Of a stretch of DNA of 17,329 bases, positions 304 through 17,329 are shown in pieces. A program made the position numbers and the translations under genes. Under the pieces are notes generated by a model, which worked only from the letters and a program-made list of their open reading frames with translations, searched no databases and was not told where the DNA came from. Source of the stretch: a virus (taxonomy: Duplodnaviria; Heunggongvirae; Uroviricota; Caudoviricetes); the IMG/VR virus record IMGVR_UViG_2639763139_000009; one strand, given 5' to 3'. Numbering within the stretch: position 1 is the stretch's first letter; each line of letters begins with the position of its first letter.

Positions 304-367
304 TATTAGCTCCTTCTGATGCCATTCTATTTCAGGAAGGAGTGTCCGTTAAACTCAGGCTACCTCA
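1..367 (-). mobile_element. IS600 (IS3 family), partial copy running off the left window edge; left inverted repeat ends at about 367
   Basis: The ORF at 1..303 (-) is a typical IS3-family orfA. Reverse complement of 354-367 is tgaggtagcctgag, an IS3-type TG... terminus. Window 1..52 is the exact reverse complement of 13492..13543, which lies in the second IS600 copy. Confidence 0.85.
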
Positions 368-2059: not shown

Positions 2060-2897
2060 CTGTTCTCCAATGACTAGTCTAAAAACTAGTATTAAGACTA
2101 TCACTTAAATAAGTGATACTGGTTGTCTGGAGATTCAGGGGGCCAGTCTAGATGCCAACACAAAGGCAACTAATAAAGATACAGATAAAGATCTAAAAAC
2201 AGATCTAACCCATCCCAAACCCTTCCCTTCCGGAAGGGAGTTTCGGGATTTTGTGGCTGGAGTGCTTGAGGGGAGATTATCTGGCGGTACTGCAGCGGAA
2301 TTTTGTAATTCTGCGGTGGTTGCGTTGCAGGCTGCTGGCCTGGATGTCTGTCGTGAGTATCCGGTGCCAGAGCGTGGTGACGGTTGCGGAGGGCGGATTG
2401 ATATCGTCGTGACTGACAGGAACGGTGTCCGGTGTGGGATCGAGCTTGACCGAAATTCTCCGCGACAGAAATCACTGCTCAAAATCGGTGCTGTTGAAAC
2501 CGGGATATGTGTCTTGCGGCGCAGTGATATCGCAAGGCACACCGAGCAGGGAATTCTGGTTATCGGTGGGGCTGTTCGCCAGAAAAAATTTGACCCGTTG
2601 TCAGTTGATCTGCCCGACTGGTTGCCAGAAACACTCTGGCATGAGTGGGTCCAGTTCAGGCAGGCATTGCGAAAACCGATTCGAACGGAGCTGGGCGCTA
2701 ACGGGGCGATACGGGAACTGGAAAAATTCCGTCAGCAGGGTTTTACACCTGAGCAGGTGATTCGACACAGCATCGCCAATGAATACCAGGGTCTGTTCGC
2801 GCCGAAAGGTGTTCGGCCTGAGACGTTGCTCCGACAGGTTAACACCGTCTCGTTGCCGGACAGTGCGATCCCGCCAGGCTTCAGGGGGTAACAGACC

Positions 2898-3644
2898 ATG
2901 AAAAATATTGCGACAGGAGGCGTTCTGGAGCGTATCCGCAGACTGACCCCACCACATGTAACCGCCCCATTCAGAACGGTTGCGGAGTGGCGCGAGTGGC
3001 AACTTGCTGAAGGCCAGAAACGTTGCGAGGAGATCAACCGCCTGAATCGTCAGTTGCGGGTGGAAAAAATCCTGAACCGCTCCGGCATCCAGCCGTTGCA
3101 CCGGAAGTGTTCGTTTGCGAATTACCGGGCGCAGAACGACGGTCAGCGACATGCACTGAGTCAGGCGAAATCCATAGCTGACGAACTGATGACAGGCTGT
3201 ACGAATTTTGTGTTCAGCGGTAAGCCCGGCACCGGAAAAAATCATCTTGCAGCCGCGATTGGCAACCGGCTGATGGCGAAGGGGCGTAGCGTGATTATCG
3301 TCACCGTGTCCGATGTCATGAGCGTGTTGCATGAGAGCTACGACAACGGCAAATCCGGTGAAAAATTTTTACAGGAGCTTTGTGGTGTTGACCTGCTGGT
3401 CCTGGATGAAATTGGCATGCAGCGGGATACGAAAAACGAGCAGGTGGTACTGAACCAGATTGTTGATCGCCGGACGGCATCGTTACGCGGTGTGGGGATG
3501 CTGACAAATATTAACCATGCAGCGATGAATACACTTCTCGGCGAGCGGGTGATGGATCGCATGGTCATGAACGGCGGGCGCTGGGTGAATTTTAACTGGG
3601 AGAGCTGGCGTCCGAATGTTAGCCATTCGAGGGTTGTTAAGTAG
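2898..3644 (+). CDS. DnaC-like replicative helicase loader (phage replication protein, AAA+ ATPase)
   Basis: Walker A GKPGTGKNHLAAAIG and Walker B DLLVLDEIG are present. Overall similarity to E. coli DnaC and Rac YdaV as recalled. RBS agggggtaa lies upstream of the ATG. Confidence 0.85.
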   Translation: MKNIATGGVLERIRRLTPPHVTAPFRTVAEWREWQLAEGQKRCEEINRLNRQLRVEKILNRSGIQPLHRKCSFANYRAQNDGQRHALSQAKSIADELMTGCTNFVFSGKPGTGKNHLAAAIGNRLMAKGRSVIIVTVSDVMSVLHESYDNGKSGEKFLQELCGVDLLVLDEIGMQRDTKNEQVVLNQIVDRRTASLRGVGMLTNINHAAMNTLLGERVMDRMVMNGGRWVNFNWESWRPNVSHSRVVK

Positions 3645-3658
3645 TTTCAGGAGGATTT

Positions 3659-4081
3659 ATGGCGAAACCTTTTACTCCCGAACAGCGGGAAGAACTGAAG
3701 ACGCGAATTGTGGAACTCGTGCATCAGGACGGTCGGGTCACGATTCGGCAGTTGTCCGATGAAACAGGTATCAGTCGTGCGTCTGTCGGTCGCTTATGCA
3801 TAGAACTGGTCGCAAGTGGTGATGTATATAATTCTGGCTACGGCTTATTCCCGTCTGAACAGGCTCGCAAGGACTGGCAAAGCGCCCGCAAAAAACTCTC
3901 GAGAGTAAAGGTGAGGAAACCGGTTGTTGTTGATCCGGACCTTATCTGGTCATTACCTGACGGAGAAATACGCCGCTACGACAGGCGCCTGAATATAATC
4001 TGTCGCGAGTGCCGGAAGAGCGAAGCTATGCAGCGTGTACTGGCTTTCTATCAGGGTAATTTTCAGGAGGCGATACTGTGA
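3659..4081 (+). CDS. hypothetical phage protein with predicted N-terminal helix-turn-helix
   Basis: 140-aa ORF with a strong RBS (aggagg) 6 nt upstream. The VTIRQLSDETGISRASVGR segment is HTH-like. Confidence 0.6.
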   Translation: MAKPFTPEQREELKTRIVELVHQDGRVTIRQLSDETGISRASVGRLCIELVASGDVYNSGYGLFPSEQARKDWQSARKKLSRVKVRKPVVVDPDLIWSLPDGEIRRYDRRLNIICRECRKSEAMQRVLAFYQGNFQEAIL

Positions 4082-4138
4082 ATGAAATTAGCTATCAGGC
4101 TTCAATTACCGCTGGCATTCGCATCAAAGGAGAGGAGC

Positions 4139-4495
4139 ATGGAAATAAAACCAGAAGATGAGTTAAGCAATATCGTTTTATTTCCGATAAAAGAGGATGA
4201 CCCTCGTAATCAGGTTAATTTTCTTTATAAGCCATCGGAAAGACCATATTGCCATCACGCCTCTGTACGGGTTGACGAAAAAGAGCGTCAGGTCCGCTGT
4301 AAAATCTGCGGTGCGGTTGTGGAGCCGTTTGACTGGATGCTCTCTGTGGCAAAAAGAGAAACCAGACTGGCAGATGATGTAAGGCTATTGCGCCAGGAGG
4401 AACAGGAAAGGCGGAGAAATATAGAAAAGCTGATACAGATTGAGCGTAACGCGAAAGCGCGGATACGCAGGGCGACAAAATCCAGAACTGAATAA
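4139..4495 (+). CDS. hypothetical phage protein, Cys/His-rich (possible zinc-binding), basic coiled-coil C-terminus
   Basis: ORF in the track at 4082..4495. A better start is the ATG at 4139, preceded by aaggagaggagc. Contains CHH...CKICG. Confidence 0.5.
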   Translation: MEIKPEDELSNIVLFPIKEDDPRNQVNFLYKPSERPYCHHASVRVDEKERQVRCKICGAVVEPFDWMLSVAKRETRLADDVRLLRQEEQERRRNIEKLIQIERNAKARIRRATKSRTE

Positions 4496-4587
4496 TTAAA
4501 TTTAGCACTGTTAAAAATTTAATCCTTAACCGGAGGGATTTCTGCACCCTCAAATCATCAGGAGACCGCCCGAAAGGGCGGTAATGA

Positions 4588-4806
4588 ATGGTTACATTAT
4601 TTAGAAAAAAATATCCGCGAAAGAGTAGAACAACAGAATTCCTGTTTCTCATTCTGTTTATCGTGTTGATGACACCGATATCCCCGCAAATTTTTGTCTG
4701 GATAATCGGAAAAATAATTGAGCCAGTTATTGAATTGTATAACGACGTGGTATGGGCGTCATTCAACACACTGCACAATAAAATTAATCCGTATAAGGAA
4801 AGCTGA
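4588..4806 (+). CDS. small hydrophobic (membrane) protein, hypothetical
   Basis: 72-aa ORF with a hydrophobic core FLFLILFIVLMTPISPQIFVWIIG. Its stop lies 1 nt before the HNH gene start (tight coupling). No obvious RBS, so the call is weak. Confidence 0.35.
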   Translation: MVTLFRKKYPRKSRTTEFLFLILFIVLMTPISPQIFVWIIGKIIEPVIELYNDVVWASFNTLHNKINPYKES

Positions 4807-4807
4807 T

Positions 4808-5173
4808 ATGGCACTGACGAAAAAACAACGTGCAGAACTGCGCATGAAGTTCGGTGGTCGCTGCGCTTATTGCGGCTGCGAACTTGGCGAAAAGTGGCAT
4901 GCAGACCATGTAAAACCGGTCATTCGTTTTGATGGAAATATGCTTCACCAGGAACGTGACGATATATCCAACATGGTACCAGAATGCCACCCATGCAATC
5001 TGCACAAGCATTGCAGTAGCCTGGAAGATTATCGACGAATTATCAGTGATGGTCGTCGTGAATTCCTTGCGTCCGGGAAAGGCAAAGCGCTGGTTCGTAT
5101 GGGATTGGTTGAAATGAAATCTGACCCGGTTGTGTTCTGGTTTGAAAAATATCAAGAAGGGGCTACGGCATGA
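4808..5173 (+). CDS. HNH endonuclease
   Basis: CAYCGCEL...HADHVKP...CHPCNLHKH motifs. RBS aaggaaa. ATGA overlap with the next gene. Confidence 0.8.
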   Translation: MALTKKQRAELRMKFGGRCAYCGCELGEKWHADHVKPVIRFDGNMLHQERDDISNMVPECHPCNLHKHCSSLEDYRRIISDGRREFLASGKGKALVRMGLVEMKSDPVVFWFEKYQEGATA

Positions 5174-5835
5174 CTACTATTACCAAAGAGCGACTGCAAT
5201 GGCTGGCTAACATTTCTGGCCGCGATGATATTGACGATATAGACGGCGGTGAAATTCGTGAACTGGCGCTTATCGCTCTGGCATCACTGGAAGCAGAGCC
5301 TGTAGCGGAATGCATTGTTGAAGATGGGGGCATGTGTATTGACGGGTTCGGTGAGTATGTGGGTCACTCGCTGCCTGATGGAATGCATGAGCTTTATGCT
5401 GCCCCGCGAATGCGACAACCTGATGGATGGAAAGCCGTAGCTGTAGCGTGGAAGGTGACGTTTACTCAAGTTGACCAGGAATCTAATACGTTCACTGCTA
5501 TATATTTTTACAAAGCGGAAGTTGAGCGTTGGGTACGACTGCATAAAGCATGTGATTTTCGGGCAGATATAACACCGCTTTACGCAGCGCCGGCAGTGCC
5601 GGTTGCAGTAAACGACGACATGGCTTACGCATTCCATCACGCACTGTCAGATTCATCGCTTGGCTCTGATGAAATCGAAGAAATTAAAACCGGTTTGCGT
5701 GCTGCCTTTGCCAACGTCACTATCCAACCAGAGCCGATAGTGCCGGATGAAATCGGGCCAAACGATAGTAATACGTTTGATTATGTTGATGGCTGGAACG
5801 CCTGCCGCGCTGCCATGCTTAAGGGAGATAAATAA
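5170..5835 (+). CDS. hypothetical phage protein
   Basis: 221-aa ORF, translationally coupled with its neighbours on both sides (ATGA and TAATG overlaps). Confidence 0.6.
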   Translation: MTTITKERLQWLANISGRDDIDDIDGGEIRELALIALASLEAEPVAECIVEDGGMCIDGFGEYVGHSLPDGMHELYAAPRMRQPDGWKAVAVAWKVTFTQVDQESNTFTAIYFYKAEVERWVRLHKACDFRADITPLYAAPAVPVAVNDDMAYAFHHALSDSSLGSDEIEEIKTGLRAAFANVTIQPEPIVPDEIGPNDSNTFDYVDGWNACRAAMLKGDK

Positions 5836-6200
5836 TGATTAATCGAACCAAACTGGAGCACATTCTCGAATATGCCAGGCAGCAGAAATGTATTGGGCAA
5901 CTTTGTAAAATTCCACCAGGAGATATGGTTGAAATCGTGGAAATGGCCATGCGTAAGGCTGGCAACTCTCCGGTAACTCTGGCTGGCTGGATAAGCTGTA
6001 GTGATGCAGTTCCTGCTGAATATTGCGATGTGATTCTTCTCGATGATCTCGGGAATGTATTCCCCGGTTCCTGGGATAAGGTTTTTTGCCCCACTCGTGG
6101 CGGGAATAAGATGGCTTTTGTGGACAAAGACGGCGTTGAAGTAGAGAGCTCAACTCACTGGATGCCGCTACCGGAACCACCGCAGGAGGTGAATCAATGA
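5835..6200 (+). CDS. DUF551-like phage protein
   Basis: C-terminal motif GWISCSDAVP...HWMPLPEPP resembles the DUF551 signature (WISV.D.LP...WMPLP.PP) as I recall it. Confidence 0.55.
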   Translation: MINRTKLEHILEYARQQKCIGQLCKIPPGDMVEIVEMAMRKAGNSPVTLAGWISCSDAVPAEYCDVILLDDLGNVFPGSWDKVFCPTRGGNKMAFVDKDGVEVESSTHWMPLPEPPQEVNQ

Positions 6201-6280
6201 CCTGGCCTGAGGCATTCACCACGGTAGGAATTGCGATGGCGGTGGCGCTGGTGGTGTATTCGATTTGCCGTTGGGGTTAA
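6197..6280 (+). CDS. small membrane peptide (27 aa), hypothetical
   Basis: ATG at 6197 overlaps the upstream stop (ATGA). A perfect aggagg sits 7 nt upstream. Encodes MTWPEAFTTVGIAMAVALVVYSICRWG. A terminator follows directly. Below the ORF-track size cutoff. Confidence 0.5.
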   Translation: MTWPEAFTTVGIAMAVALVVYSICRWG

Positions 6281-6285
6281 CAAAC

Positions 6286-6317
6286 AAAAACCCCGGATTG
6301 ATGGTCCGGGGTTTTTG
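6286..6317 (+). terminator. rho-independent terminator
   Basis: ccccgg-attgatggt-ccgggg hairpin followed by ttttt. Confidence 0.8.
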
Positions 6318-6597
6318 AAGGAAACAAAACAGAAACAGCAATTGCCGTTACCTGTTGTTACCATGGCAAGTAAACGTATCTCAGGCGAGCGCATTGCGCC
6401 GTTCTGACGCAGATAAATTAGCCTGGATAGAAGGTGCTGGCAATAAAAAATAGCGTTTTCTTATCGGTATCGGTAAGATTGCTGCGGGTGCTTGAGGCTG
6501 TCTGCCTCGGGCATGCCACTGTAAGGCAGACAGAGAAAAGCCCCAGTTAACATTACGCGTCCTGCAAGACGCTTAACATTAATCTGAGGCCCAATCT

Positions 6598-6810
6598 ATG
6601 TCTCACAAATGTAGGTTAGCCTCTTACGTGCCGAAAGGCAAGGAGAAGCAGGCTATGAAGCAGCAAAAGGCGATGTTAATCGCCCTGATCGTCATCTGTT
6701 TAACCGTCATAGTGACGGCACTGGTAACGAGGAAAGACCTCTGCGAGGTACGAATCCGAACCGGCCAGACGGAGGTCGCTGTCTTCACAGCTTACGAACC
6801 TGAGGAGTAA
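6598..6810 (+). CDS. mok-like in-frame upstream reading frame of the hok locus
   Basis: 70-aa ORF that extends hok by 19 codons at the N-terminus, as in chromosomal mok/hok pairs (recalled as ~69 vs ~50 aa). Confidence 0.45.
   Translation: MSHKCRLASYVPKGKEKQAMKQQKAMLIALIVICLTVIVTALVTRKDLCEVRIRTGQTEVAVFTAYEPEE
6655..6810 (+). CDS. hok: Hok/Gef-family type I toxin (51 aa)
   Basis: MKQQKAMLIALIVICLTVIVTALVTRKDLCEVRIRTGQTEVAVFTAYEPEE is a transmembrane helix plus the conserved Hok C-terminal domain. Recalled as near-identical to HokD/RelF. Confidence 0.9.
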   Translation: MKQQKAMLIALIVICLTVIVTALVTRKDLCEVRIRTGQTEVAVFTAYEPEE

Positions 6811-6877
6811 GAGACCAGGCGGGGGAGAAATCCCTCGCCACCTCTCATGTGTCAGGCATCCTCAACGCACCCGCACT

Positions 6878-6902
6878 AAACCCGCTTCGGCGGGTTTTTT
6901 GT
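6878..6902 (+). terminator. rho-independent terminator at the 3' end of the hok transcript
   Basis: aaacccgc-ttcg-gcgggttt hairpin plus T-tract. Confidence 0.8.
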
Positions 6903-7086
6903 TGCGTGCTGAATACGCAGGGTGAAAAATAACCATATATTTGATTATATACACAACAAAAAATAAAAGTCATTGTACTTGCACATTAAACAATCAAATA
7001 TACGGCGTGAAATAAATATTTATCAGATTAATATTTTTGTCTCTATGTGGATATAACCGTTTGTACTTATAAACCTGGAGGCATCG

Positions 7087-7298
7087 TGGAAAAAATAAAG
7101 AAACTATTTAGTAGCAAATACGCAGTCATACGTCGTGATGACCTGTCAGTTATAGTCGAAATGGATTACTTCCCTGAAACCCCAAAATCAATAATGTATC
7201 GTAATGGTCGAAAGGCAATTTTTTTACCGATGAGGGTAAGTGACATTATGGGAAATGATAAACTGCTGGATGAATTGCGAGTCAGAGCATCCTGTTAG
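7087..7298 (+). CDS. small hypothetical prophage protein (Rem-like by position and size)
   Basis: GTG start 5 nt after ggagg. The ORF-track alternative is 7047..7298 (83 aa). Position after hok parallels the hokD-rem order of the Qin prophage as recalled. The stop codon lies within the IS1 target duplication, so the gene is intact. Confidence 0.45.
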
Positions 7299-7315
7299 TA
7301 GGTAATGACTCCAAC

Positions 7316-7819
7316 TTACTGATAGTGTTTTATGTTCAGATAATGCCCGATGACCTTGTCATGCAGCTCCACCGATTTTGAGAACGACAGTGACTTCCGT
7401 CCCAGCCTTGCCAGATGTTGTCTCAGATTCAGATTATGTCGCTCAATGCGCTGAGTGTAACGCTTGCTGATAACGTGCAGCTTTCCCTTCAGGCGTGATT
7501 CATACAGCGGCCAGCCATCCGTCATCCATACCACGACCTCAAAGGCCGACAGCAGGCTCAGAAGACGCTCCAGTGTGGCCAGAGTGCGTTCACCGAAGAC
7601 GTGCGCCACAACCGTCCTCCGTATCCTGTCATACGCGTAAAACAGCCAGCGCTGACGTGATTTAGCACCGACGTAGCCCCAATGTTCGTCCATTTCAGCG
7701 CAGACAATCACATCACTGCCCGGTTGTATGCGCGAGGTTACCGACTGCGGCCTGAGTTTTTTAAGTGACGTAAAACCGTGTTGAGGCCAACGCCCATAAT
7801 GCGTGCACTGGCGCGACAT
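7316..7819 (-). CDS. insB: IS1 InsB (transposase expressed as InsAB fusion by frameshift)
   Basis: 167-aa ORF overlapping the insA 3' end, typical IS1 organisation. Confidence 0.93.
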
Positions 7820-8013
7820 CCGACGCCATTCATGGCCATATCAATGATTTTCTGGTGCGTACCGGGCTGAGAGGCGGTGTAAGTGAACTGTAGTTGCCAT
7901 GTTTTACGGCAATGAGAGCAGAGATAGCGCTGATGTCCGGCAGTGCTTTTGCCGTTACGCACCACGCCTTCAGTAGCGGAGCAGGAAGGACATCTGATGG
8001 AAATGGAAGCCAC
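7738..8013 (-). CDS. insA: IS1 InsA
   Basis: 91-aa zinc-finger protein [40 protein letters not shown]... Confidence 0.93.
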
Positions 8014-8146
8014 GCAAGCACCTTAAAATCACCATCATACACTAAATCAGTAAGTTGGCAGCATTACCCTGTTAGTATTGGCATTAATTCTGGTATACTA
8101 CATAACGGGCTGAACACCCATTCTACTGCGCCAGCGGAGAACTACG

Positions 8147-8746
8147 ATGGCGCATATACAACTGGTCAAACAAACCTCTTCCGGATTACTTCTCCCGGCG
8201 ACGCCGGAGAGTTGCGATTTTTTGCATCAAATCAAAATAGGTGAGTGGATACACGCAGACTTTAAGCGTGTGCGTAACTACGCATTCCACAAGCGTTTTT
8301 TCAAACTCCTGCAACTGGGATTTGATTACTGGACTCCGGTCGGTGGGGCGATCACGCCTCGCGAACGAAAACTGGTATCAGGCTTCGTTGATTACCTGTG
8401 CGAATCAGTAGGTCGGGAACACACTCCAGCCCTGAGTGATGCCGCAGAGCAATACCTTAATACAGTTGCGACATGCAGAACCCGGGATACGGCATTGCTA
8501 AAGTCGTTTGATGCTTTCCGCGAGTGGGTAACCATTCAGGCCGGATTTTACACCGAGCATATTTATCCTGATGGTAGTCGTGGGCGCAGGGCAAAATCTA
8601 TCGCATTTGCGAACATGGACGAAACCGAGTTTCAGCAGGTTTATAAATCTGTACTGAATGTGCTGTGGAACTGGATCCTGTTCCGTAAATTTTCCTCTCC
8701 GGAGCAAGTCGAAAATGTGGCCGCGCAGCTGCTGGAGTTTGCGTAA
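8147..8746 (+). CDS. nin-region hypothetical protein (possibly YbcN/YdfU-like)
   Basis: 199-aa ORF with RBS ggaga. Immediately upstream of the YbcO-like gene with TAATG coupling. Family assignment is by position only. Confidence 0.55.
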   Translation: MAHIQLVKQTSSGLLLPATPESCDFLHQIKIGEWIHADFKRVRNYAFHKRFFKLLQLGFDYWTPVGGAITPRERKLVSGFVDYLCESVGREHTPALSDAAEQYLNTVATCRTRDTALLKSFDAFREWVTIQAGFYTEHIYPDGSRGRRAKSIAFANMDETEFQQVYKSVLNVLWNWILFRKFSSPEQVENVAAQLLEFA

Positions 8747-9036
8747 TGGTGGATTTACGTAAAGCGGCGCGGGGGCAGATGTGCACCGTCAGAATTCCTG
8801 GCTACTGCAATCACAATCCCGAAACTTCTGTGCTGGCGCATTACAGGCTGGCGGGGACGTGCGGAACAGCGACAAAACCACACGATATGCAGGCAGCGAT
8901 TGCCTGTAGCTCATGCCACGATTTAATCGACGGGCGGGTAAAAACCAGCGATTACACCAAAGAAGAATTACGCCTGATGCATGCAGAAGGTGTTTTTCGC
9001 ACACAAGAAATCTGGAGAAAGGAAGGTTATTTATGA
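8746..9036 (+). CDS. YbcO-like (DUF1364) putative nuclease, Cys-rich
   Basis: MVDLRKAARGQMCTVRIPGYCNHNPETSVLAHYRLAGTCGTATKPHDMQAAIACSSCHD... closely resembles DLP12 YbcO (96 aa) as recalled. Confidence 0.7.
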   Translation: MVDLRKAARGQMCTVRIPGYCNHNPETSVLAHYRLAGTCGTATKPHDMQAAIACSSCHDLIDGRVKTSDYTKEELRLMHAEGVFRTQEIWRKEGYL

Positions 9037-9644
9037 TTTACCCAACAAATACAGGCAAAAGCGGGGAACACCTTCGTCTCACCACGCTGGAAAGTGTCTG
9101 GATTCAGGGAAAACTGCGCATGTGGGGGCGCTGGTCGTATATTGGCGGCGGTAAGACGGGAAATATGTTTAACCAGTTGCTGGCATCCAAAAAATTGACG
9201 AAAACAGCCGTCAATGAAGCCCTGCGCAGGATGAAAAAAGCGGGAATAGAGAAACCTGAGCTGGAAGCGTTTTTGCGAGAGATGATCAATGGCAAGCAAA
9301 AGACCTGGCTGGCGCATTGTACTGATGCAGAGGCGTTATGTATTGATAGAGTCATAAGTGAGGTGCTGGCAGAGCATCCTGGATTGATTAGTGTCCTCCG
9401 GCAACGGTATGAAGGGCGGGGGATGACTAAGCGTAAAATGGCTGAATTGCTGAATGACGCACACCCGAAATGGAGTTTAAGAACCTGTGAAAGACGCATT
9501 GAGCATTGGCTAAAGGTGGCAGAATTTATTTTGCACAAACCAATGGTTATGGCTTTTGGTATAGAGAAAAAAGTTCTTGCATTTTTGCACATAAACTGCT
9601 TCAATTCCGGTAAGCTTCGCAAAGCTGTATCGCGAGGCGAATAG
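9033..9644 (+). CDS. putative late-gene antiterminator (Q-like) by position; family uncertain
   Basis: 204-aa ORF with ATGA overlap onto the ybcO-like stop and RBS aggaagg. Last gene of the nin region, followed by a terminator and the tRNA cluster as in lambdoid Q regions. The ORF-track start at 8913 is an in-frame extension overlapping the previous gene. Confidence 0.4.
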   Translation: MIYPTNTGKSGEHLRLTTLESVWIQGKLRMWGRWSYIGGGKTGNMFNQLLASKKLTKTAVNEALRRMKKAGIEKPELEAFLREMINGKQKTWLAHCTDAEALCIDRVISEVLAEHPGLISVLRQRYEGRGMTKRKMAELLNDAHPKWSLRTCERRIEHWLKVAEFILHKPMVMAFGIEKKVLAFLHINCFNSGKLRKAVSRGE

Positions 9645-9663
9645 CAGACATGGACACTTGAAA

Positions 9664-9689
9664 GAACCCGCTTTATGCGGGTTTTTTTG
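9664..9689 (+). terminator. rho-independent terminator
   Basis: aacccgc-tttat-gcgggtt hairpin plus ttttttt. Confidence 0.75.
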
Positions 9690-9738
9690 TGCCTGAAAAA
9701 TGGCACAGGGCGTTAAACGCGCTGGTGGTCAGATGAGT

Positions 9739-9767
9739 TTGCAGATGTGATGACATATGGTTATTAT
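9739..9767 (+). promoter_or_regulatory. candidate sigma70-type promoter (TTGCAG-N17-TATTAT) directly upstream of the tRNA cluster; could equally be the late promoter
   Basis: Hexamers with 17-bp spacing end about 9 nt before the first tRNA. Confidence 0.3.
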
Positions 9768-9776
9768 TCTGCCTCC

Positions 9777-9853
9777 GGCCCTTTAGCTCAGTTGGTCAGA
9801 GCGAGCGACTCATAATCGCCAGGTCGCTGGTTCAAGTCCAGCAAGGGCCACCA
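9777..9853 (+). tRNA. tRNA with anticodon CAU, ileX/ileZ-like (tRNA-Ile2 if lysidine-modified, otherwise Met)
   Basis: Manual cloverleaf: acceptor ggccctt/aagggcc, D-arm gctc/gagc, anticodon loop ctCATaa, T-loop ttcaagt, encoded CCA. Confidence 0.85.
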
Positions 9854-9854
9854 A

Positions 9855-9931
9855 CCACCACTAGCTCATCCGGATAGAGCATCAACCTTCTAAGTTGACG
9901 GTGCGAGGTTCGAGTCCTCGGTGGTGGGCCA
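9855..9931 (+). tRNA. tRNA-Arg (anticodon UCU)
   Basis: Acceptor ccaccac/gtggtgg, anticodon stem tcaac/gttga with loop ctTCTaa, T-arm cgagg-ttcgagt-cctcg, encoded CCA. Confidence 0.85.
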
Positions 9932-9933
9932 GC

Positions 9934-10009
<76 letters not shown>

Positions 10010-10012
10010 TAT

Positions 10013-10087
<75 letters not shown>

Positions 10088-10201
10088 TGACCTTTCTTAA
10101 AGTACTCCAACCTACTGAATCCTAAGGGATACGGCTTTAAGCCTCCTTGCAGAGTTACTTACTGTAACCCACTGTGTAACCCTCTCAGGGCATACAGACA
10201 T

Positions 10202-11806
10202 ATGATTCAGCTATCCAGTAGTCACAAACTTCCAGCAGTCTACTATCTCTACCAGCGTAACGGCGTCTACTACTTCCGTCTTAGGGTCAGACAATCAAAC
10301 AATGATAGAATGACCTCAATATCATTACGGACCAAGGATAGACGCACCGCTATGGCTTACTCAAGGCACATAAAGGCAGCACTCAAGGCAATACACGCAG
10401 ACAGACCCAACGCTACCTATGAGGAAATGAGGGAACACCTTAAGGACATCGCTGAGTGTGAACTGTCTATGGGCCGTTCAGATCTCTTTGAGCCTGACAT
10501 GAGGGATATCTACCGGGACCAATACGGAGAACTTGGTGAGAGCCTTACCGATGCTCTGGCTAGTGAGCCGCTAAGCATTGACCAGCATCGTTACATCAAT
10601 GAGGCCCTGAAGGTGCTAAAAGCCTGTATGAGGCGTATCGAAGCGGGAGACAGTCAGCCTCTGATAGATTACGTCGATCTTTTTAATGATATTGATAGGC
10701 AAGATAACCAAGCAGACTCTGTGTCCCTATCTGTTAATGCTCCAGAAGTAAAACCAGAAGTTACGCCTAGCATTACCATAGCGAGCCTCTTTGAGCAATA
10801 CGAAGCGGAGAACTATCAGAACTGGAAGCCTGCAACCTTAAGGGAAAACAAGGCGTCACACGCTGCGTTAATCGAAATATTCGACCATCTGGGTCTCAAT
10901 GCAGACGCTAACAGGGCTGACATGCTTAGGGTCCGTGATGTGCTCCAGCAGTTACCTAGGAACCGTAAGCAGCGCTTCAAGGATGTCCCACTTGCTGACC
11001 TGTTGAGCCGTGAAGATAAGACAGATTGTCTGGATGTCGTTACCATCAACAACAAGTATCTTATTAAGATGGCTGCTGTCTTTAGGTGGGCTGTGCGCAA
11101 TGACTTGATTAAAAAGAACATGACTGAGGGTCTGGAGCTTAAAGTCCCTCAGCGTAAAGCCTCAGGGGCCCGTAACGCCTTCTCTACGGAGCAGGTGGGG
11201 CAACTACTGGTCGCAGCTAAGGCATACTCTCAGAAGACCTCTGGTAAGCCGTATCATTATTATGTTACCGCCTTGGCTGCTATCACTGGGGCGAGACTCA
11301 ATGAAATAGCCCAACTACAGGTCAAAGACGTCAGGACCACTGAGGCGGGAACCGTTTATATTCATATCAATGAAGACGATAGTAGTCTACCCGGTAAGAG
11401 CATCAAGAACGCTCATAGTGACCGCTGTGTGCCTCTGGTCGATGGGGCCTATGGTTTTATATTGGCTGACTTTATGGCGCTTGTAGAGACCCGTAGAGGC
11501 GCTGACGGTGATGACGCTATGGTGTTCGATGGTCTGCGTCTCATGAAGAACGGTTACGGTGAGCAGGTGAGTAAATGGTTTAATCGGACGTTGTTGCCTA
11601 AAGTCCTCGTAGACCGTAGCGGCTTAGCGTTTCACTCGTTTAGACATACAGTTGCGACCCAGTTAAAACAACATGGGGTCGAGTTGGCGTATGCACAGGC
11701 GATCATGGGGCATAGTTCAGGGTCTATTACTTACGACCGTTATGCTAAAGAGGTCGAGGTTGATAGGCTGGTCAATGTGATGGCTGATGTTTATAAGGAG
11801 ACCTAG
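10202..11806 (+). CDS. int: tyrosine site-specific integrase (534 aa, large form with extended central region)
   Basis: N-terminal arm-type motif VYYFRLRV. Catalytic-domain motifs TGARLNEIAQL, HSFRHTVATQL and the C-terminal ITYDRYAKE tyrosine. Starts 115 bp after the tRNA-Gly. Confidence 0.85.
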   Translation: MIQLSSSHKLPAVYYLYQRNGVYYFRLRVRQSNNDRMTSISLRTKDRRTAMAYSRHIKAALKAIHADRPNATYEEMREHLKDIAECELSMGRSDLFEPDMRDIYRDQYGELGESLTDALASEPLSIDQHRYINEALKVLKACMRRIEAGDSQPLIDYVDLFNDIDRQDNQADSVSLSVNAPEVKPEVTPSITIASLFEQYEAENYQNWKPATLRENKASHAALIEIFDHLGLNADANRADMLRVRDVLQQLPRNRKQRFKDVPLADLLSREDKTDCLDVVTINNKYLIKMAAVFRWAVRNDLIKKNMTEGLELKVPQRKASGARNAFSTEQVGQLLVAAKAYSQKTSGKPYHYYVTALAAITGARLNEIAQLQVKDVRTTEAGTVYIHINEDDSSLPGKSIKNAHSDRCVPLVDGAYGFILADFMALVETRRGADGDDAMVFDGLRLMKNGYGEQVSKWFNRTLLPKVLVDRSGLAFHSFRHTVATQLKQHGVELAYAQAIMGHSSGSITYDRYAKEVEVDRLVNVMADVYKET

Positions 11807-11893
11807 AGGAGACCATAGTCTAGGATGACACTTACTACAGACCTGTGTGGTCATGTTTTTGACTCATAGTTTTCTCTACTTGTCAAGGATAAT

Positions 11894-11916
11894 TAATACG
11901 ACTCACTATAGGGAGA
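11894..11916 (+). promoter_or_regulatory. bacteriophage T7 RNA polymerase promoter, exact 23/23 match to the class III consensus TAATACGACTCACTATAGGGAGA (+1 at G 11911)
   Basis: Direct read of the sequence at 11894-11916. Oriented toward the AT-rich tract, the repeats and the Rha-like gene. Confidence 0.8.
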
Positions 11917-12109
11917 AGGGACACAAAAAGTTTTCTCTTCTAGGACAACTAACCGTAACTTATCGCATCCTTTCAGGGGCGGGATGACCAATTACAGACA
12001 CCAAGCGTTCTACTTAAAGTGAATGCTTCCTGTGTGCTCTGGGTCAGTCGATAAGTGAATAGCAATAAGACACAATCATCTTAATTATGGTCTCTAGTCC
12101 CTACAGGGG

Positions 12110-12205
12110 CTTAACTTAAAGTTAACTTAAAGACACAATTAGAGATTAACTTTAAGTATTAAATAAAAGATTTAATTAAAGACCAATTAAAGATTAACTC
12201 TAAGG
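12110..12205. other. AT-rich tract with reiterated TTAAAG / AACTTAAAG motifs, about 200 bp downstream of the T7-type promoter
   Basis: cttaacttaaagttaacttaaagacacaattagagattaactttaagtattaaataaaagatttaattaaagaccaattaaagattaactctaaggg. Composition and motifs recall the region following T7 promoter phi1.1B, i.e. the primary replication origin (from memory, not aligned). Confidence 0.5.
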
Positions 12206-12250
12206 GAATACCTTAAGGGGTGATGATATTTATAATAATCAATCACCAAA

Positions 12251-12350
12251 CCTATAGGTCTTTTCTAGGGTCTCTCTATAGGTCTTCTCTATGGTCCTCT
12301 ATGGTCCTCTATGGTCCTCTATGGTCCTCTATGGTCCTCTATGGCCCTGT
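12251..12350. repeat. tandem direct repeats: 5 perfect copies of atggtcctct (12291-12340) flanked by degenerate copies
   Basis: Seen directly. Upstream degenerate units ctataggtctt(t/c)tct and downstream atggccctgt. Confidence 0.9.
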
Positions 12351-12567
12351 ACGTCATTCTTTAGGATGCCCTGTAGTTTCGTATAGCCTGATGCCTAGAG
12401 AGACCCTCCCAGTAGCTCCGCACAGCTACATCGTCATCATCATAGTATTCAATCTCAAAGTCATTCTGTTTGCATCCTGTTGTCCTGCTGGTCTCCCTTC
12501 GCTTGGGGACTTTGAGTAGGTCAGTGGGGGTGCGACTTCAGGGTGCAAACAAAAAGGAAATCAAGCG

Positions 12568-12723
12568 ATGTCTCAACAACCACAACAACCACAACAAGAA
12601 ATCAGCATCATTAACCTCGACCAGCTTGTGTCCATGACCTCAGTTGAAATTGCTGAGCTGACAGGCAAGGAGCACCGAAATGTCCTTCGTGATATTCGTA
12701 AGATGCTCGAAGAACTTAACGCG
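12568..12723 (+). pseudogene. Rha-like phage regulatory protein gene, N-terminal 52 codons only, truncated by IS1
   Basis: MSQQPQQPQQEISIINLDQLVSMTSVEIAELTGKEHRNVLRDIRKMLEEL resembles the Phage_pRha N-terminal motif (..EIAELTGK.H..V.RDIR..) as recalled. The reading frame runs into the IS1 end at 12724. RBS aaggaaa. Confidence 0.5.
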
Positions 12724-12778
12724 GGTAATGCTGCCAACTTACTGATTTAGTGTATGATGGTGATTTTAAGGTGCTTGC

Positions 12779-13054
12779 GTGGCTTCCATTTCCATCAGAT
12801 GTCCTTCCTGCTCCGCTACTGAAGGCGTGGTGCGTAACGGCAAAAGCACTGCCGGACATCAGCGCTATCTCTGCTCTCATTGCCGTAAAACATGGCAACT
12901 ACAGTTCACTTACACCGCCTCTCAGCCCGGTACGCACCAGAAAATCATTGATATGGCCATGAATGGCGTCGGATGTCGCGCCAGTGCACGCATTATGGGC
13001 GTTGGCCTCAACACGGTTTTACGTCACTTAAAAAACTCAGGCCGCAGTCGGTAA
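12779..13054 (+). CDS. insA: IS1 InsA
   Basis: Protein identical to the InsA of the first IS1 copy. Confidence 0.93.
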
Positions 13055-13476
13055 CCTCGCGCATACAACCGGGCAGTGATGTGATTGTCTGCGCTGAAAT
13101 GGACGAACATTGGGGCTACGTCGGTGCTAAATCACGTCAGCGCTGGCTGTTTTACGCGTATGACAGGATACGGAGGACGGTTGTGGCGCACGTCTTCGGT
13201 GAACGCACTCTGGCCACACTGGAGCGTCTTCTGAGCCTGCTGTCGGCCTTTGAGGTCGTGGTATGGATGACGGATGGCTGGCCGCTGTATGAATCACGCC
13301 TGAAGGGAAAGCTGCACGTTATCAGCAAGCGTTACACTCAGCGCATTGAGCGACATAATCTGAATCTGAGACAACATCTGGCAAGGCTGGGACGGAAGTC
13401 ACTGTCGTTCTCAAAATCGGTGGAGCTGCATGACAAGGTCATCGGGCATTATCTGAACATAAAACACTATCAGTAA
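12973..13476 (+). CDS. insB: IS1 InsB
   Basis: Protein identical to the InsB of the first IS1 copy. Confidence 0.93.
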
Positions 13477-13491
13477 GTTGGAGTCATTACC

Positions 13492-14440
13492 AAAAAAAGC
13501 AACAGCGTATTTTGCACAGGAGTCGCTGAAAAATACGCGTTAATCGAACAATGGCGACAACAATTTCCCATTGAAGCGATGTGTCAGGTATTTGGTGTAT
13601 CCAGGAGCGGTTATTACAACTGGGTACAGCATGAACCCTCAGACAGAAAACAAAGTGATGAGCGGCTAAAACTGGAGATTAAGGTGGCACATATCCGCAC
13701 TCGCGAAACATATGGAACCCGGCGGCTCCAGACGGAGCTGGCAGAGAATGGCATCATCGTTGGTCGTGACCGACTGGCACGTCTTCGTAAGGAGCTGAGG
13801 CTACGCTGTAAGCAGAAACGCAAGTTCAGAGCGACTACGAACCCGAACCACAATCTGCCAGTTGCGCCAAATCTGCTGAACCAGACGTTCGCTCCTACAG
13901 CACCAAATCAGGTCTGGGTGGCGGACCTGACGTATGTTGCCACACAGGAGGGATGGTTGTACCTCGCTGGCATCAAAGATGTTTATACGTGCGAAATTGT
14001 CGGCTACGCCATGGGAGAGCGCATGACAAAAGAGCTGACAGGTAAAGCCCTGTTTATGGCGCTCAGGAGCCAGCGCCCACCTGCCGGGCTAATCCACCAC
14101 TCTGATCGAGGTTCACAGTACTGCGCATACGATTACCGGGTCATACAGGAGCAGTCTGGTCTGAAAACATCAATGTCGCGTAAAGGTAACTGTTACGACA
14201 ACGCTCCGATGGAAAGCTTCTGGGGAACGCTGAAAAATGAGAGCCTGAGCCACTATCGTTTTAATAACCGGGATGAAGCCATCTCAGTAATACGGGAATA
14301 CATTGAGATTTTCTACAATCGTCAGCGTCGTCACTCTCGTCTGGGGAATATCTCCCCGGCAGCCTTCAGGGAAAAATATCATCAGATGGCTGCTTAAAAA
14401 AAGAACAAATGGTAGTGTCCGCTATTGCCAGTACACCTCA
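13492..14440 (+). mobile_element. IS600, 5'-truncated copy (lacks the left IR and most of orfA), right IR ending ...gtacacctca at 14440
   Basis: 13492..13543 equals the reverse complement of window 1..52. orfB follows. The terminus resembles the IS600 left IR in inverted form (tgaggt...cggacact). Confidence 0.9.
13579..14397 (+). CDS. IS600 OrfB transposase (DDE integrase core)
   Basis: 272-aa ORF with the IS3-family DDE region (WVADLTY...HSDRGSQY...ESFWGTLKNE). Normally expressed as an OrfAB fusion by -1 frameshift at the A7G motif at 13492-13499. Confidence 0.9.
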   Translation: MCQVFGVSRSGYYNWVQHEPSDRKQSDERLKLEIKVAHIRTRETYGTRRLQTELAENGIIVGRDRLARLRKELRLRCKQKRKFRATTNPNHNLPVAPNLLNQTFAPTAPNQVWVADLTYVATQEGWLYLAGIKDVYTCEIVGYAMGERMTKELTGKALFMALRSQRPPAGLIHHSDRGSQYCAYDYRVIQEQSGLKTSMSRKGNCYDNAPMESFWGTLKNESLSHYRFNNRDEAISVIREYIEIFYNRQRRHSRLGNISPAAFREKYHQMAA

Positions 14441-14543
14441 GTTAATCCAATATCTCCCCGGCAGCCTTCAGGGAAAAATATCATCAGATGGCTGCTTAAA
14501 AAAAGAACAAATGGTAGTGTCCGCTATTGCCAGTACACCTCAG
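14347..14543 (+). repeat. tandem duplication (two ~95-bp copies, offset 102 bp) of the IS600 3' end, including the orfB 3' codons and the right inverted repeat
   Basis: Identical 93-nt block atctccccggcagcc...gccagtacacctcagt at 14350-14442 and 14452-14544; each copy is followed by a near-identical short flank (gttaatcca vs gtaatcca). Confidence 0.9.
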
Positions 14544-14895
14544 TAATCCATCCAGGCCTGTTGTTGCAGAGCTTGGCGATGATTCAGGCTGGCATTTTTT
14601 CAGCCAGAGAAACCCGGATAACAGCATAGTGTTCACTGTTAACGGACAGGTAATTCCGTTAAATTACGGAAACTTCGATGCCCGCTATAAATATCGAACA
14701 GAGGGGGTACAGGATGTACGGTATGGCCATGAAATGTATTACAGCCCCGGCAGTAACACCGTTTCGTGGAGATTTTGCGCACCTTCGGGACACGGGCTGT
14801 CAGGGATGGCGATATCGGATACCGGCCGTAACTCAGCGGATAACGTTGACGGTGTGTATTACCGACCACTGCAAAAACTGATTAATGGCACCTAG
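14543..14895 (+). pseudogene. side tail fibre protein, C-terminal fragment only (N-terminus removed at the IS600 boundary)
   Basis: RPVVAELGDDSGWHFFSQRNPDNSIVFTVNGQ...YRPLQKLINGT matches the conserved C-terminus of P2 gpH / lambda Stf-type fibres as recalled. The reading frame is open back into the IS600 end with no native start. Confidence 0.7.
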
Positions 14896-14918
14896 TATAA
14901 CGTAGCGAGTATTTAACA

Positions 14919-15463
14919 ATGTTGCATTTAAAAAATATTACTACGGGTAATCCGAAAACAGCAGAACAATATCAGATGACAAAACGATATTCGGTCACCT
15001 GGCTTTTTTCAGAAGACGGAAAAAACTGGTATGAAGAGCTGAAGAATTTCGCCAGGACACAATTAAAATAACTTACACCGGAGACGGTCGCGTGGTGTGG
15101 GTCGGTAAGGATGTGACAGGCATTGAACCCCGTAACGCCAGTGTTATTGAAGTTCCTGATATTACCGCCAACCGCCGCATTACCGCGCCGGGTTACTGGT
15201 TTTACCGCAATGATGAATTTGTCTTTGACTACAGACTCAAAGCGGAAGATGAGCGTGATGCCCTTCTGGCTCAGGTCAGTGCCCGGACAGGGGAATGGGA
15301 AGAAGACCTGCTGCTGGGGTTAATCAGCGACGAAGATAAAGAAAAGCTGAAAGCCTGTCGTATTTACGCGAAATCGCTGCAGGCGATGGATTTCAGCACC
15401 ATCACTGATAAATCCTCATACAACGCCATTGAATGGCCCGCCTCTCCGGAAGGTTCTTCCTGA
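14919..15463 (+). pseudogene. tail fibre assembly protein (Tfa) gene with a frameshift near 15050
   Basis: N-terminal part [19 protein letters not shown]...WYEELKNF is in frame 0 and stops at 15069-15071. The remainder ([21 protein letters not shown]... to IEWPASPEGSS, Tfa-like C-terminus) is in frame 2. Both halves match a single Tfa protein as recalled. Confidence 0.65.
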
Positions 15464-15486
15464 TTTAATTTATCGCGAGAAAAACA

Positions 15487-16755
15487 ATGTCTGTAGTGAT
15501 ATCAGGTGCGCTGACTGATGGCGCAGGTATCCCCATGTCCGGATACCATATTATTCTGAAATCCCGGGTAAACACCCCGGAAGTGGTGATGAACACTGTT
15601 GCTGATGTGATGACAGGAAACGATGGTGAATACTGTTTCCATGCGCGGACTGGAAAATATGGTGTGTATCTGAAACAGGACTGGCGCAACGAGTACAACG
15701 TTGGCGACATTGCTGTATATGAGGACTCAAAGCCCGGCACGCTGAATGACTTTCTGATTGCTCCTGATGAGGGCGACCTGAAACCGGATGTCGTCAAACG
15801 CTTTGAGGAAATGGTGGCGCAGGCGCAGCAGAGCGCCGGGGCCGCAGCCGGAAACGCACAGCAGACGGCGCAGGATGTGGCGGCAGCCGCAGGTTATGCC
15901 CGCGCAGCAGAGCAGGCCAAAAATGACATTGATGCTGCGCTGACCGGCACTCTGAAAATGGCTAACCATCTGTCAGAAATCGCAGCAGCAGGCGAAAAGG
16001 CACAACAGAAGTCCCGGGATAATCTGGGGCTGAAAAGTGCGGCCACGATGGAAGCACAGAGCGACATTTACGACCGGACAAAAGGCCGTCTGGCGATACC
16101 CGGCGCATTCGGCTTTGGGTGTGCTTTTCTGCCTGAAGATGTTATCCGTTTTGACACTAAGAGTGATTTCCTGGCCTGGGTAAGGAATGCGCTGCCAGGT
16201 GAATATTCCGTTGCTGGCCCTTACGGCATCATCATACCCGACACACGGTTTGAAGGGGTGCTCAGCATCCGGTGGACTGATGCACGCCCTGAGACAACAG
16301 AACCGCGGTACAGAGCCAAATCCCTTACTTTTTACGGCATTAACGGCCCCATTTATCACACCCGCTACTGCTACTGGCCCATATCCAGACTGACTGGCTG
16401 GGTGAAAATAAATATAACCACAGAAGATATTATTTACAGAATCGTGGCGAGCTCTGTCCGCAACAGATGGGGAGACCCTGACATTGGCGGGCTGATTATT
16501 GCTGCGTACCAGGGAGAAGCTGACGGTGATAAAGTCATCAGACTTGTCAGGGGGCAGTCATACAGAGGCTCACGACTGGGACCGGTGGGGATTTCAGTGC
16601 CCAGTACTCCCACCGGAACGTATATAGTATCCCCACAATTTTTCATAACGGGATGTTCAGAGCATTCATTACCGGGGTCATATTGCGCCCTGTCCGGGGT
16701 GCCGGATGCACATGTCTCTGGCGCAATGCCCGGGCTTTTTATTCGCACATCGTGA
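15487..16755 (+). CDS. side tail fibre protein (Stf-like, 422 aa)
   Basis: N-terminus MSVVISGALTDGAGIP...VYEDSKPGTLNDFL closely parallels the lambda Stf N-terminus (MAVKISGVLKDGTGKP...VYEDSQPGTLNDFL) as recalled. An Ala/Gln-rich stalk follows, then a distinct C-terminal domain. Confidence 0.8.
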   Translation: MSVVISGALTDGAGIPMSGYHIILKSRVNTPEVVMNTVADVMTGNDGEYCFHARTGKYGVYLKQDWRNEYNVGDIAVYEDSKPGTLNDFLIAPDEGDLKPDVVKRFEEMVAQAQQSAGAAAGNAQQTAQDVAAAAGYARAAEQAKNDIDAALTGTLKMANHLSEIAAAGEKAQQKSRDNLGLKSAATMEAQSDIYDRTKGRLAIPGAFGFGCAFLPEDVIRFDTKSDFLAWVRNALPGEYSVAGPYGIIIPDTRFEGVLSIRWTDARPETTEPRYRAKSLTFYGINGPIYHTRYCYWPISRLTGWVKINITTEDIIYRIVASSVRNRWGDPDIGGLIIAAYQGEADGDKVIRLVRGQSYRGSRLGPVGISVPSTPTGTYIVSPQFFITGCSEHSLPGSYCALSGVPDAHVSGAMPGLFIRTS

Positions 16756-16765
16756 GGAATGCACC

Positions 16766-17329
16766 GTGGAAATTAAAAAAATCATTAATCCCCGTTATAC
16801 CGAAAGTGGCGCAGTAGACTGTGACGTTTTTTTTGACGACAGGGACCAGGCAGTTCCCTACACAGCCACCGCTGATGATGTCGCACCGACGGGTCAGCAA
16901 ATCTGGCAGGAACTGCAAAGTGGCAAATGGGGTGAGATAGCCCCATTCACTGTGACACCAGAAATGCTGGAAGCGGCCAGAGAGGCCAGACGTCAGGAAA
17001 TTGAAGCATGGCGCGCAGAACAGGAGGCGAAGCCGTTCACGTTTGAATGGAACGGTCGTATCTGGAATGCTGGCCCCGACTCACTGGGCCGCCTGTCCCC
17101 GGTAGTCATGCTGGCAAAATCTGTCACAGCACAAACACATATGGCGTGGAGCGATGCCGATAATCAGCAGGTGAAACTGTCGATGCCGGAACTGGAAGAA
17201 CTGGCGGCAGCAATGGTGCAGGCGCAGGTCGATCGCAACGATGAGATTTATCGCCGTCAGCGGGAGCTGAAGGAAGAGCTGAATAGTCTGAAGGATTTGA
17301 ATTCGGTTAGGAATTTTATCGTGGAATAA
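16766..17329 (+). CDS. putative tail fibre assembly / chaperone protein
   Basis: GTG start 7 nt after tgagga. Lies immediately downstream of the fibre gene. Acidic coiled-coil C-terminus. The stop codon is the last 3 nt of the window. Confidence 0.5.
   Translation: MEIKKIINPRYTESGAVDCDVFFDDRDQAVPYTATADDVAPTGQQIWQELQSGKWGEIAPFTVTPEMLEAAREARRQEIEAWRAEQEAKPFTFEWNGRIWNAGPDSLGRLSPVVMLAKSVTAQTHMAWSDADNQQVKLSMPELEELAAAMVQAQVDRNDEIYRRQRELKEELNSLKDLNSVRNFIVE

Follow-up and report, generated by a model that had tools for sequence, protein, structure and literature searches.

How a complete IS1 came to lie, without any target duplication, between pieces of two unrelated genes is the question raised by the cryptic, sitABCD-carrying prophage of Shigella flexneri analysed here. 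The stretch of DNA under study (the window, 17,329 nucleotides in its full length) is, from position 202 to 17329, an exact substring of a locus (L006) within the S. flexneri contig AMKF01000030.1, and the source names of the matching proteins are those of Shigella flexneri, with strain 5a M90T among them. What is known as the 'sit island' of S. flexneri is this cryptic prophage (PMC7545054). From left to right, the window carries phage replication and nin-region genes, a Q-like antiterminator gene, four tRNAs and a 534-aa integrase, followed by a 10-bp tandem repeat array, a Rha remnant, an IS1, an IS600 fragment and the 3' end of a tail-fibre gene. At its right end are found a tail-fibre assembly gene, a second tail-fibre gene and a DUF4376 gene, and sitDCBA comes next in the source contig. 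The IS1 in question (copy B) and the pieces joined by it are the following.

12724-13491, plus strand: IS1 copy B, complete, 768 bp
12724-12746 (IRL) and 13469-13491 (IRR): imperfect 23-bp terminal inverted repeats of copy B, 87% complementary
12779-13054 and 12973-13476, plus strand: overlapping reading frames insA and insB' of copy B, both with strong Pfam matches
12568-12723, plus strand: 5' remnant of the Rha-family regulator gene of the island, 52 codons from the ATG at 12568
13492-14440, plus strand: IS600 fragment, IS600 nt 316-1264, with a right terminal repeat ending in ...CACCTCA
13492-13499, plus strand: A7G frameshift run of the IS600 fragment, 52 nt before the orfA stop
13541-13543, plus strand: stop codon of the orfA remnant, which consists of the last 52 nt (last 17 codons) of orfA
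13579-14397, plus strand: orfB of the IS600 fragment, intact, Pfam rve and HTH_21

A first-pass annotation of this DNA had described copy B as an IS1 at 12724-13491, bordered on the left by a Rha-like gene cut at codon 52, on the right by an IS600 starting at its A7G motif, and devoid of flanking direct repeats. The element was located exactly to the base, as judged from its length, terminal repeats and reading frames, which together make copy B a full member of the IS1 family. Its left end is GGTAATGCTGCC and its right end ...GTTGGAGTCATTACC; its Pfam matches are Zn_ribbon_InsA (5.9e-20), HTH_Tnp_IS1 (4.9e-30) and DDE_Tnp_IS1 (1.1e-73), and its sequence is 100% identical to that of the inverted IS1 copy A (7301-8068). 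The borders agree with the annotation as well. On the left, ...GAACTTAACGCG is the end of codon 52 of the Rha-family ORF, and on the right AAAAAAAGCAAC... is IS600 from nt 316 onward, this nucleotide being the first A of the run. The 9-bp flanks, CTTAACGCG on the left and AAAAAAAGC on the right, have only 2 of 9 positions in common, so that no target duplication is present. Since the 8-9 bp duplication is lacking, the present flanks of copy B do not come from one insertion event, which leaves its identity as an IS1 unaffected; they derive from two unrelated genes, Rha and IS600, and not from one interrupted sequence.

The other IS1 of the window was used as an internal control.

7301-8068, minus strand: IS1 copy A, a simple insertion

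As had been annotated, copy A is flanked on both sides by a perfect 9-bp duplication, CTGTTAGTA (7292-7300 and 8069-8077). Two ways of linking the copies were rejected. An inversion between the identical, inverted copies A and B is contradicted by the perfect duplication that copy A keeps as its own and by the collinearity of all relatives. For a composite transposon with the two copies as its ends, the outer flanks are CTGTTAGTA and AAAAAAAGC, without outer duplication, and the duplication of copy A is private to it.

The left flank of copy B belongs to a small module, of which two further features are needed here.

9777-10087, plus strand: phage-borne tRNA cluster (Met-CAT, Arg-TCT, Thr-TGT, Gly-TCC)
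10202-11806, plus strand: tyrosine integrase of the island, 534 aa, Pfam Phage_integrase, at the left end of an island whose right part is lost

The 52-codon ORF matches Pfam Phage_pRha (E=5.8e-10) over profile positions 1-31 of 91, short of the full 91-position domain, and is a pseudogene remnant. Intact Rha homologues of 234 aa (L004) and about 238 aa (L042) run through the IS1 point as ...CTTAACGC(A/G)CTCAAAACTGAG. At this point the homologue sequence is ...GAGCTTAACGCG directly followed by CTCAAAACTGAG..., and the side corresponding to the remnant is CTTAACGCG, then CTCAAAACTGAG. Since intact Rha continues across this position, the sequence CTTAACGCG is native to Rha, of which about 190 codons have been lost. 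Short Rha variants were considered as other IS truncations near the same codon and set aside; most of them are more simply explained by frameshifts in a CTCAAAACTGAG repeat and one (P0009) by insertion of IS66, and the short variants are uninformative on the IS1 event. In E. coli, the integrase-plus-Rha module is found at a chromosomal tRNA-Gly gene (glyU islands), adjoining actS, and in one read-set assembly it lies beside a type III secretion (ETT2-like) gene cluster. This module forms the left end of an integrative island, which in the window begins directly after the fourth tRNA, the position occupied by a holin gene in the intact relative described below (RMDEC364). A second copy of the tRNA-Gly 3' end would be expected at the other limit of the island; the window contains none.

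The right flank of copy B leads through IS600 into the tail-fibre region, where the following features were distinguished.

1-367, minus strand: separate IS600 copy (IS600 nt 1-367), cut by the window edge and inverted relative to the fragment
14441-14542, plus strand: 102-bp tandem duplication, made of 8 nt of flank (GTTAATCC) and a second copy of IS600 nt 1171-1264
14543-14895, plus strand: 3' fragment of the tail-fibre gene, the prophage gene into which IS600 had inserted

IS600 positions were counted from the left end of the inverted copy, at window 367. The fragment beside copy B is 99.7-100% identical to other IS600 copies, and the homologous stretch is annotated as IS600 in RefSeq. Missing from it are the left terminal repeat, nt 1-315 and orfA codons 1 to about 83; a whole element has 1264 bp, TG...CA ends and both terminal repeats, and here the right end only is found. 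The piece is a fragment and not a functional member of the IS3 family, and because orfA is mostly gone no OrfAB fusion should be possible, despite the A7G run and the intact orfB. The stretch to the right of copy B, AAAAAAAGCAACAGCG..., is perfectly complementary to window 1-52, the end of orfA in the inverted IS600 of the left edge. This left-edge copy was examined as the missing half of the cut IS600 and rejected, as the two overlap by 52 nt (nt 316-367), which is not a duplication length. In enteroinvasive E. coli (EIEC) FDAARGOS_944, the tail-fibre gene is uninterrupted across the IS600 site and reads ...TTGTGGGGTAATCCATCC, which is consistent with a 3-bp GTA target (flank GTAATCC). Another IS600 of the locus, downstream of the Q gene in most strains, is bordered by a clean duplication of 3 bp (CAG). 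The junction between IS600 and the tail-fibre gene is conserved across 29 loci. Among the 47 loci fetched, the 102-bp duplication junction is seen only in the window's own contig, 28 other loci having the single-copy junction, and this tandem duplication of the IS600 end is strain-specific.

The distribution of the two junctions of copy B was then established in loci fetched by exact-protein look-up with the island integrase, the 60-aa Rha'::IS1 fusion and the IS600/tail-fibre junction ORF, which come from 23 distinct assemblies of S. flexneri. With exact junction probes of 60 or 50 nt, both junctions were recovered, identical to the base, in 21 of the 23 assemblies, many of which are complete chromosomes, and in two contigs of IMG/VR. 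Among the accessions for the 122-aa ORF is AAN42962.1, which we take to be from the 2002 genome of S. flexneri 2a strain 301, so that the junction would have been public for two decades. Recurring as it does in 21 of 23 independent assemblies, the junction is neither a chance event nor an assembly error. The first-pass annotation had named relatives with the same junction between direct repeats, as left by a simple insertion, as the finding that would speak against a deletion; the relatives have the same junction and the repeats are equally absent from them. A simple IS1 insertion with a decayed duplication, or an assembly artefact at the repeats, draws on nothing beyond its general possibility and is given a negligible probability: the flanks come from the unrelated genes Rha and IS600 and not from one interrupted sequence, the junctions are identical in the 21 independent assemblies, and both the decayed duplication and the artefact are already refuted by these data.

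The two assemblies without the junctions, CP182555 (L026) and L032, are secondary losses. In CP182555 one hybrid full-length IS600 is present, with the CAG site on its left flank and the GTA site of the tail-fibre gene on its right flank, and the segment comprising ORF6N, the tRNAs, the integrase, the Rha remnant and IS1 is gone; this hybrid is the signature of IS600-by-IS600 recombination. In L032, other IS elements replace the junction segment. As the junctions are identical in 21 of 23 assemblies, the event is old and essentially fixed, and the deletion probably predates the diversification of the S. flexneri strains sampled. These results are in agreement with the large IS expansion described in the common ancestor of S. 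flexneri, much of which predates the diversification of the species (PMC7373316).

What was lost between Rha and the tail-fibre gene can be read from an uninterrupted, collinear prophage of EIEC strain RMDEC364, located at the Rac site (intR adjoining ttcA). The prophage is matched at 94.5% by window 8148-10085, which runs from the DUF1367 gene across the tRNAs, and at 97.1% by window 14638-17329, both in the same order and orientation; sitDCBA is present in both, and the spacing from DUF4376 to sitD is 201 bp in RMDEC364 and in the source contig alike. Between the matching blocks, that is from the tRNA cluster to the tail-fibre gene, RMDEC364 carries 22.3 kb with 28 complete genes and the first part of the tail-fibre gene. 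These genes code for holin, lysozyme, lysis protein, terminase subunits, portal, head, neck, sheath, tube, tape-measure-like, baseplate and spike proteins. In their place, the window has 4.5 kb made up of island remnant, IS1 and IS600 fragment. The comparator, about 94-97% identical, is mosaic: nothing in it matches the replication genes at window 407-3644, and for the 93 bp of tail-fibre gene beside IS600 the match lies in a different EIEC prophage, near ipaH and pgl. RMDEC364 is therefore to be taken as a relative and not as the ancestor.

Together with the lost Rha codons and the absent far end of the island, the 22.3 kb of RMDEC364 support the reading of the locus as a deletion, on the evidence of sequence comparison. 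Lost, on this reading, were about 190 Rha codons with the remainder of the island, some 22 kb of phage genes, the tail-fibre gene in its 5' part and IS600 nt 1-315; in all, this amounts to at least about 23 kb plus a further length of island, possibly removed in several steps. The claim of the first-pass annotation that island cargo and the lysis, head and tail genes had most likely disappeared between Rha and the tail fibre is borne out by this comparison with relatives of uninterrupted locus, the prophage being intact and collinear in RMDEC364 and Rha continuing in L004 and L042. It may be asked if the early region with the island, on one side, and the tail-fibre-sit segment, on the other, could have come from two prophages or loci joined by an IS1-mediated deletion, inversion or translocation. 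Shigella genomes are, as general background, heavily rearranged via IS elements, and the locus is itself mosaic, as seen with window 407-3644 and with the 93 bp from a different EIEC prophage. RMDEC364, however, has both parts within a single prophage, unchanged in order and orientation and accompanied by the same sit cargo, which makes an internal deletion the simplest reading and a joining of two loci improbable.

The hallmarks of an IS1-promoted adjacent deletion are present at the locus: IS1 is intact, the endpoint falls exactly at its terminus, no target duplication is seen, and DNA that is contiguous in relatives (the prophage of RMDEC364; Rha in L004 and L042) is missing between the flanks. 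IS1 is said to be the classical element for adjacent deletions, a reputation that reportedly goes back to Reif and Saedler in 1975. Missing duplications usually reflect adjacent deletion or IS-IS recombination, and in the long-term evolution experiment 14 of 14 duplication-less IS150 deletion events were adjacent deletions, often growing stepwise (PMC11708052). An IS1-promoted adjacent deletion in the cryptic sitABCD-carrying prophage of S. flexneri is the reading that we put first, with roughly even confidence. The events, in an order that we infer, could have been as follows. An integrative island with integrase, Rha and further genes would have settled beside the phage tRNA cluster, IS600 would have entered the phage tail-fibre gene, and IS1 would then have inserted into the A7G run of this IS600. 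By intramolecular transposition, the left end of IS1 would have attacked Rha at codon 52 and deleted all the DNA between, maybe in more than one step. IS1 would be left intact by this process, with one original flank and one new flank and hence no duplication, and the prophage and the island would be unable to excise or to form particles. The mirror order would be equally compatible, with IS1 first in Rha and a rightward deletion into the A7G run afterwards.

An identical product, namely an intact IS1 with flanks from two sites and no duplication, would be expected if two simple IS1 insertions of the same orientation, one at Rha codon 52 and the other in the A7G run of IS600, had been fused by RecA-dependent recombination into one hybrid IS1. 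As both processes give the same product, the present data cannot separate them; of the IS1-promoted adjacent deletion proposed in the first-pass annotation, the deletion bounded by IS1 is thus supported, whereas the single-IS1 mechanism is inseparable from recombination between two IS1. We regard this recombination as a serious possibility, somewhat short of even. S. flexneri carries very many near-identical IS1 copies, an event of the same kind has taken place at the locus itself (the hybrid IS600 of L026, which deletes ORF6N through IS1), and that the A7G site can receive a simple IS1 insertion is proven by the EIEC O121 strain presented below. On the other hand, two prior insertions of the same orientation are needed and not one, no genome was found in which this prophage has a simple insertion at one or the other of the two sites, the 60-aa Rha'::IS1 fusion is always followed by the same right-hand context among the places listed, and a hybrid would be unrecognisable since all IS1 copies seen are near-identical. 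As a single earlier insertion suffices for it, the adjacent deletion by one IS1 is weakly preferred, with recombination between two IS1 copies close behind.

The O121 case is that of EIEC strain 201805972 (NZ_CP119441.1, 1934191-1936123), the only one among 5,426 complete E. coli genomes with the IS1-IS600 junction. In this strain an IS1A splits IS600 at the same nucleotide and in the same orientation as in the window, with the same right-hand junction sequence. It differs from the window in that IS600 retains its two halves and an 8-bp duplication (AAAAAAAG), in that the IS1 is of the IS1A isoform and in that a different prophage gene is concerned. The O121 IS1A is about 91% identical to the IS1 of the window, a value derived from the 94.4% over IS1 plus IS600, so that the insertion is probably independent. 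A descent link between the O121 nested element and S. flexneri was sought in the IS600 SNP patterns and abandoned, the SNPs being too few. The strain demonstrates that the A7G run of IS600 accepts simple IS1 insertions; it is silent on which junction of the window is the original one, as an intramolecular attack gives the same right-hand junction. A smaller possibility is that the slippery A7G run of IS600 is a true IS1 hotspot, at which one IS would recurrently inactivate another.

States preceding the deletion should be recognisable by their junctions. With IS1 in Rha, a duplication and the rest of Rha, the right end of IS1, ...GTTGGAGTCATTACC, would be followed by CTTAACGCGCTCAAAACTGAG; with IS1 in the tail-fibre IS600, the reciprocal junction would run from the tail-fibre 5' part, ...TTGTGGGGTA, through IS600 nt 1-323, ...ATATATTAAAAAAAG, to the left end of IS1, GGTAATGCTGCC. 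No uninterrupted or intermediate state was found in the E. coli complete genomes with a 1.8-kb query and both 120-bp junction queries, in IMG/VR, or by exact-protein look-ups with the integrase, the Rha'::IS1 fusion and the IS600/tail-fibre ORF, and no intermediate of the IS1 event was seen among homologues of the 52-aa Rha remnant. The searches for intermediates returned only post-deletion S. flexneri loci, chromosomal glyU islands and short contigs ending before Rha (L012-L014), and wherever the Rha'::IS1 fusion protein or the IS600/tail-fibre ORF was located, the context was post-deletion. As no pre-deletion intermediate was found in the collections searched, the order of the events and the single-IS1 mechanism are to be taken as proposals.

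The scar accounts for the cryptic state of the sit-carrying prophage in S. flexneri and for the fact that its Rha and IS600 genes at this point are pseudogenes. That the deletion was selected, and not neutral, we consider unlikely although conceivable; the lysis and morphogenesis genes and the excision boundary of the island would have been removed in one IS1-bounded event, by which the prophage would have been 'grounded' and the sitABCD iron/manganese transporter fixed permanently in the ancestor of S. flexneri. Stable throughout the lineage, the junction is a possible PCR or k-mer marker. It also adds one more case to the IS-driven genome reduction of Shigella, which is already well described at the population scale.

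The scar is already known in kind, being the product of known elements and of a textbook process of ordinary IS-mediated decay. The classical adjacent deletions of IS1 in the gal operon, which proceed by intramolecular replicative transposition, likewise leave IS1 intact, start at an IS1 end and give one original and one new flank without target duplication; the present case differs from them in being read from its product, in its large size (at least 23 kb) and in its possibly multi-step course. Recombination between IS pairs is known in Shigella from the loss of the pINV pathogenicity island between pairs of ISSfl4, IS1294 or IS600 (PMC5629016). Its outcome, a single IS with flanks from two sites and no duplication, is similar to that of the window and is seen at this locus for IS600 (L026), but for IS1 both parental insertions would be required, and neither was found. 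At the level of the whole prophage, the comparison is with the sit island and with 'grounded' cryptic prophages in general: in these, the locus keeps sitABCD and has lost its lysis and morphogenesis genes via IS activity. Such elements, in which the cargo is kept and the genes for lysis and morphogenesis are lost, reportedly form a known class, from which the locus of the window does not differ in anything substantive.

The integrase-plus-Rha module of the window (10013-12723) lies directly behind a phage-borne tRNA-Gly, and its location was compared with those in the loci L004, L012-L014, L043, L044 and L047. The chromosomal tRNA-Gly of E. coli, adjoining actS, also harbours this module, and in L047, which comes from one read-set assembly, the module has a type III secretion (ETT2-like) cluster as its neighbour. 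In a different lambdoid phage (L012-L014), an integrase identical to that of the window comes after Q and an intergenic stretch of about 0.6 kb. The occurrence of the module or its integrase at phage and chromosomal tRNA-Gly genes and in another lambdoid phage suggests that the module is a mobile island targeting tRNA-Gly-like genes, phage-borne ones included. Two repeats are present in the island:

12277-12356, 10-bp tandem array of about 7 units (CTCTATGGTC), between the island integrase and Rha
12574-12597, CAACAACCA (QQP) repeat, at the 5' end of Rha

The copy number of both the 10-bp array and the CAACAACCA repeat differs among S. flexneri strains, and the 10-mers could serve the island as binding sites or iterons.

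In most S. flexneri strains, the region separating Q from the tRNAs is occupied by another segment, about 2.2 kb long (7167-9365 in L040, one of the fetched loci, versus 9467-9566 in the window). This segment encodes a different C-terminus of Q and holds an ORF6N antirepressor gene interrupted by an IS600 with CAG duplicated at its ends, whereas the window has the shorter arrangement similar to that of RMDEC364. In the protein collection, the 203-aa Q variant of the window was detected on 1 contig only. The two IS1 copies of the window (7301-8068 and 12724-13491) are 100% identical, inverted and 4.65 kb apart, so that recombination between them could flip the segment containing Q, the tRNAs and the integrase; this inverted arrangement was not seen among the fetched relatives.

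In the locus of CP182555.1 (L026, 8753-10016), a full-length hybrid IS600 has the ORF6N site as left flank and the tail-fibre site as right flank, indicating that IS600-by-IS600 recombination secondarily deleted about 7 kb and thereby took away the IS1 junction of that strain. Such an arrangement was found in at least one place among the matches listed. At the right end of the IS600 of the window, a 102-bp tandem duplication (14347-14550) covers the end of the element together with 8 nt of the tail-fibre flank, its two units differing by 1 nt (GTTAATCC versus GTAATCCA). The junction of this duplication is present in L006, the window's own contig, and absent from all other fetched loci; in 28 loci other than L006, the IS600/tail-fibre junction is single-copy.

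Two other features were identified in the prophage:

818-2151, minus strand, IS2 with 99.7% identity to that of RMDEC364, breaking the DUF1376 phage replication gene
6486-6810, hok/sok toxin-antitoxin module (Rfam sok, 118 bits) with a 70-aa ORF

The counterpart of this 70-aa ORF in the source contig (L006, 6397-6609) matches Pfam HOK_GEF. The tail-fibre assembly gene (14919-15463) is broken into ORFs of 50 and 123 aa in the window, while EIEC and one S. flexneri strain (L020) have it as one uninterrupted ORF of 181 aa, so that the window shows further pseudogene decay among the remaining tail genes.

In E. coli O121 (L003, 5700-7720; NZ_CP119441.1), IS1A interrupts an IS600; its orientation and the IS600 nucleotide at which it sits are those of the IS1 in the window, and AAAAAAAG is duplicated (8 bp) on its two sides. 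Among 5,426 complete E. coli genomes, no second IS600 of this kind occurs, and this case may reflect a preference of IS1 for the slippery run of IS600.
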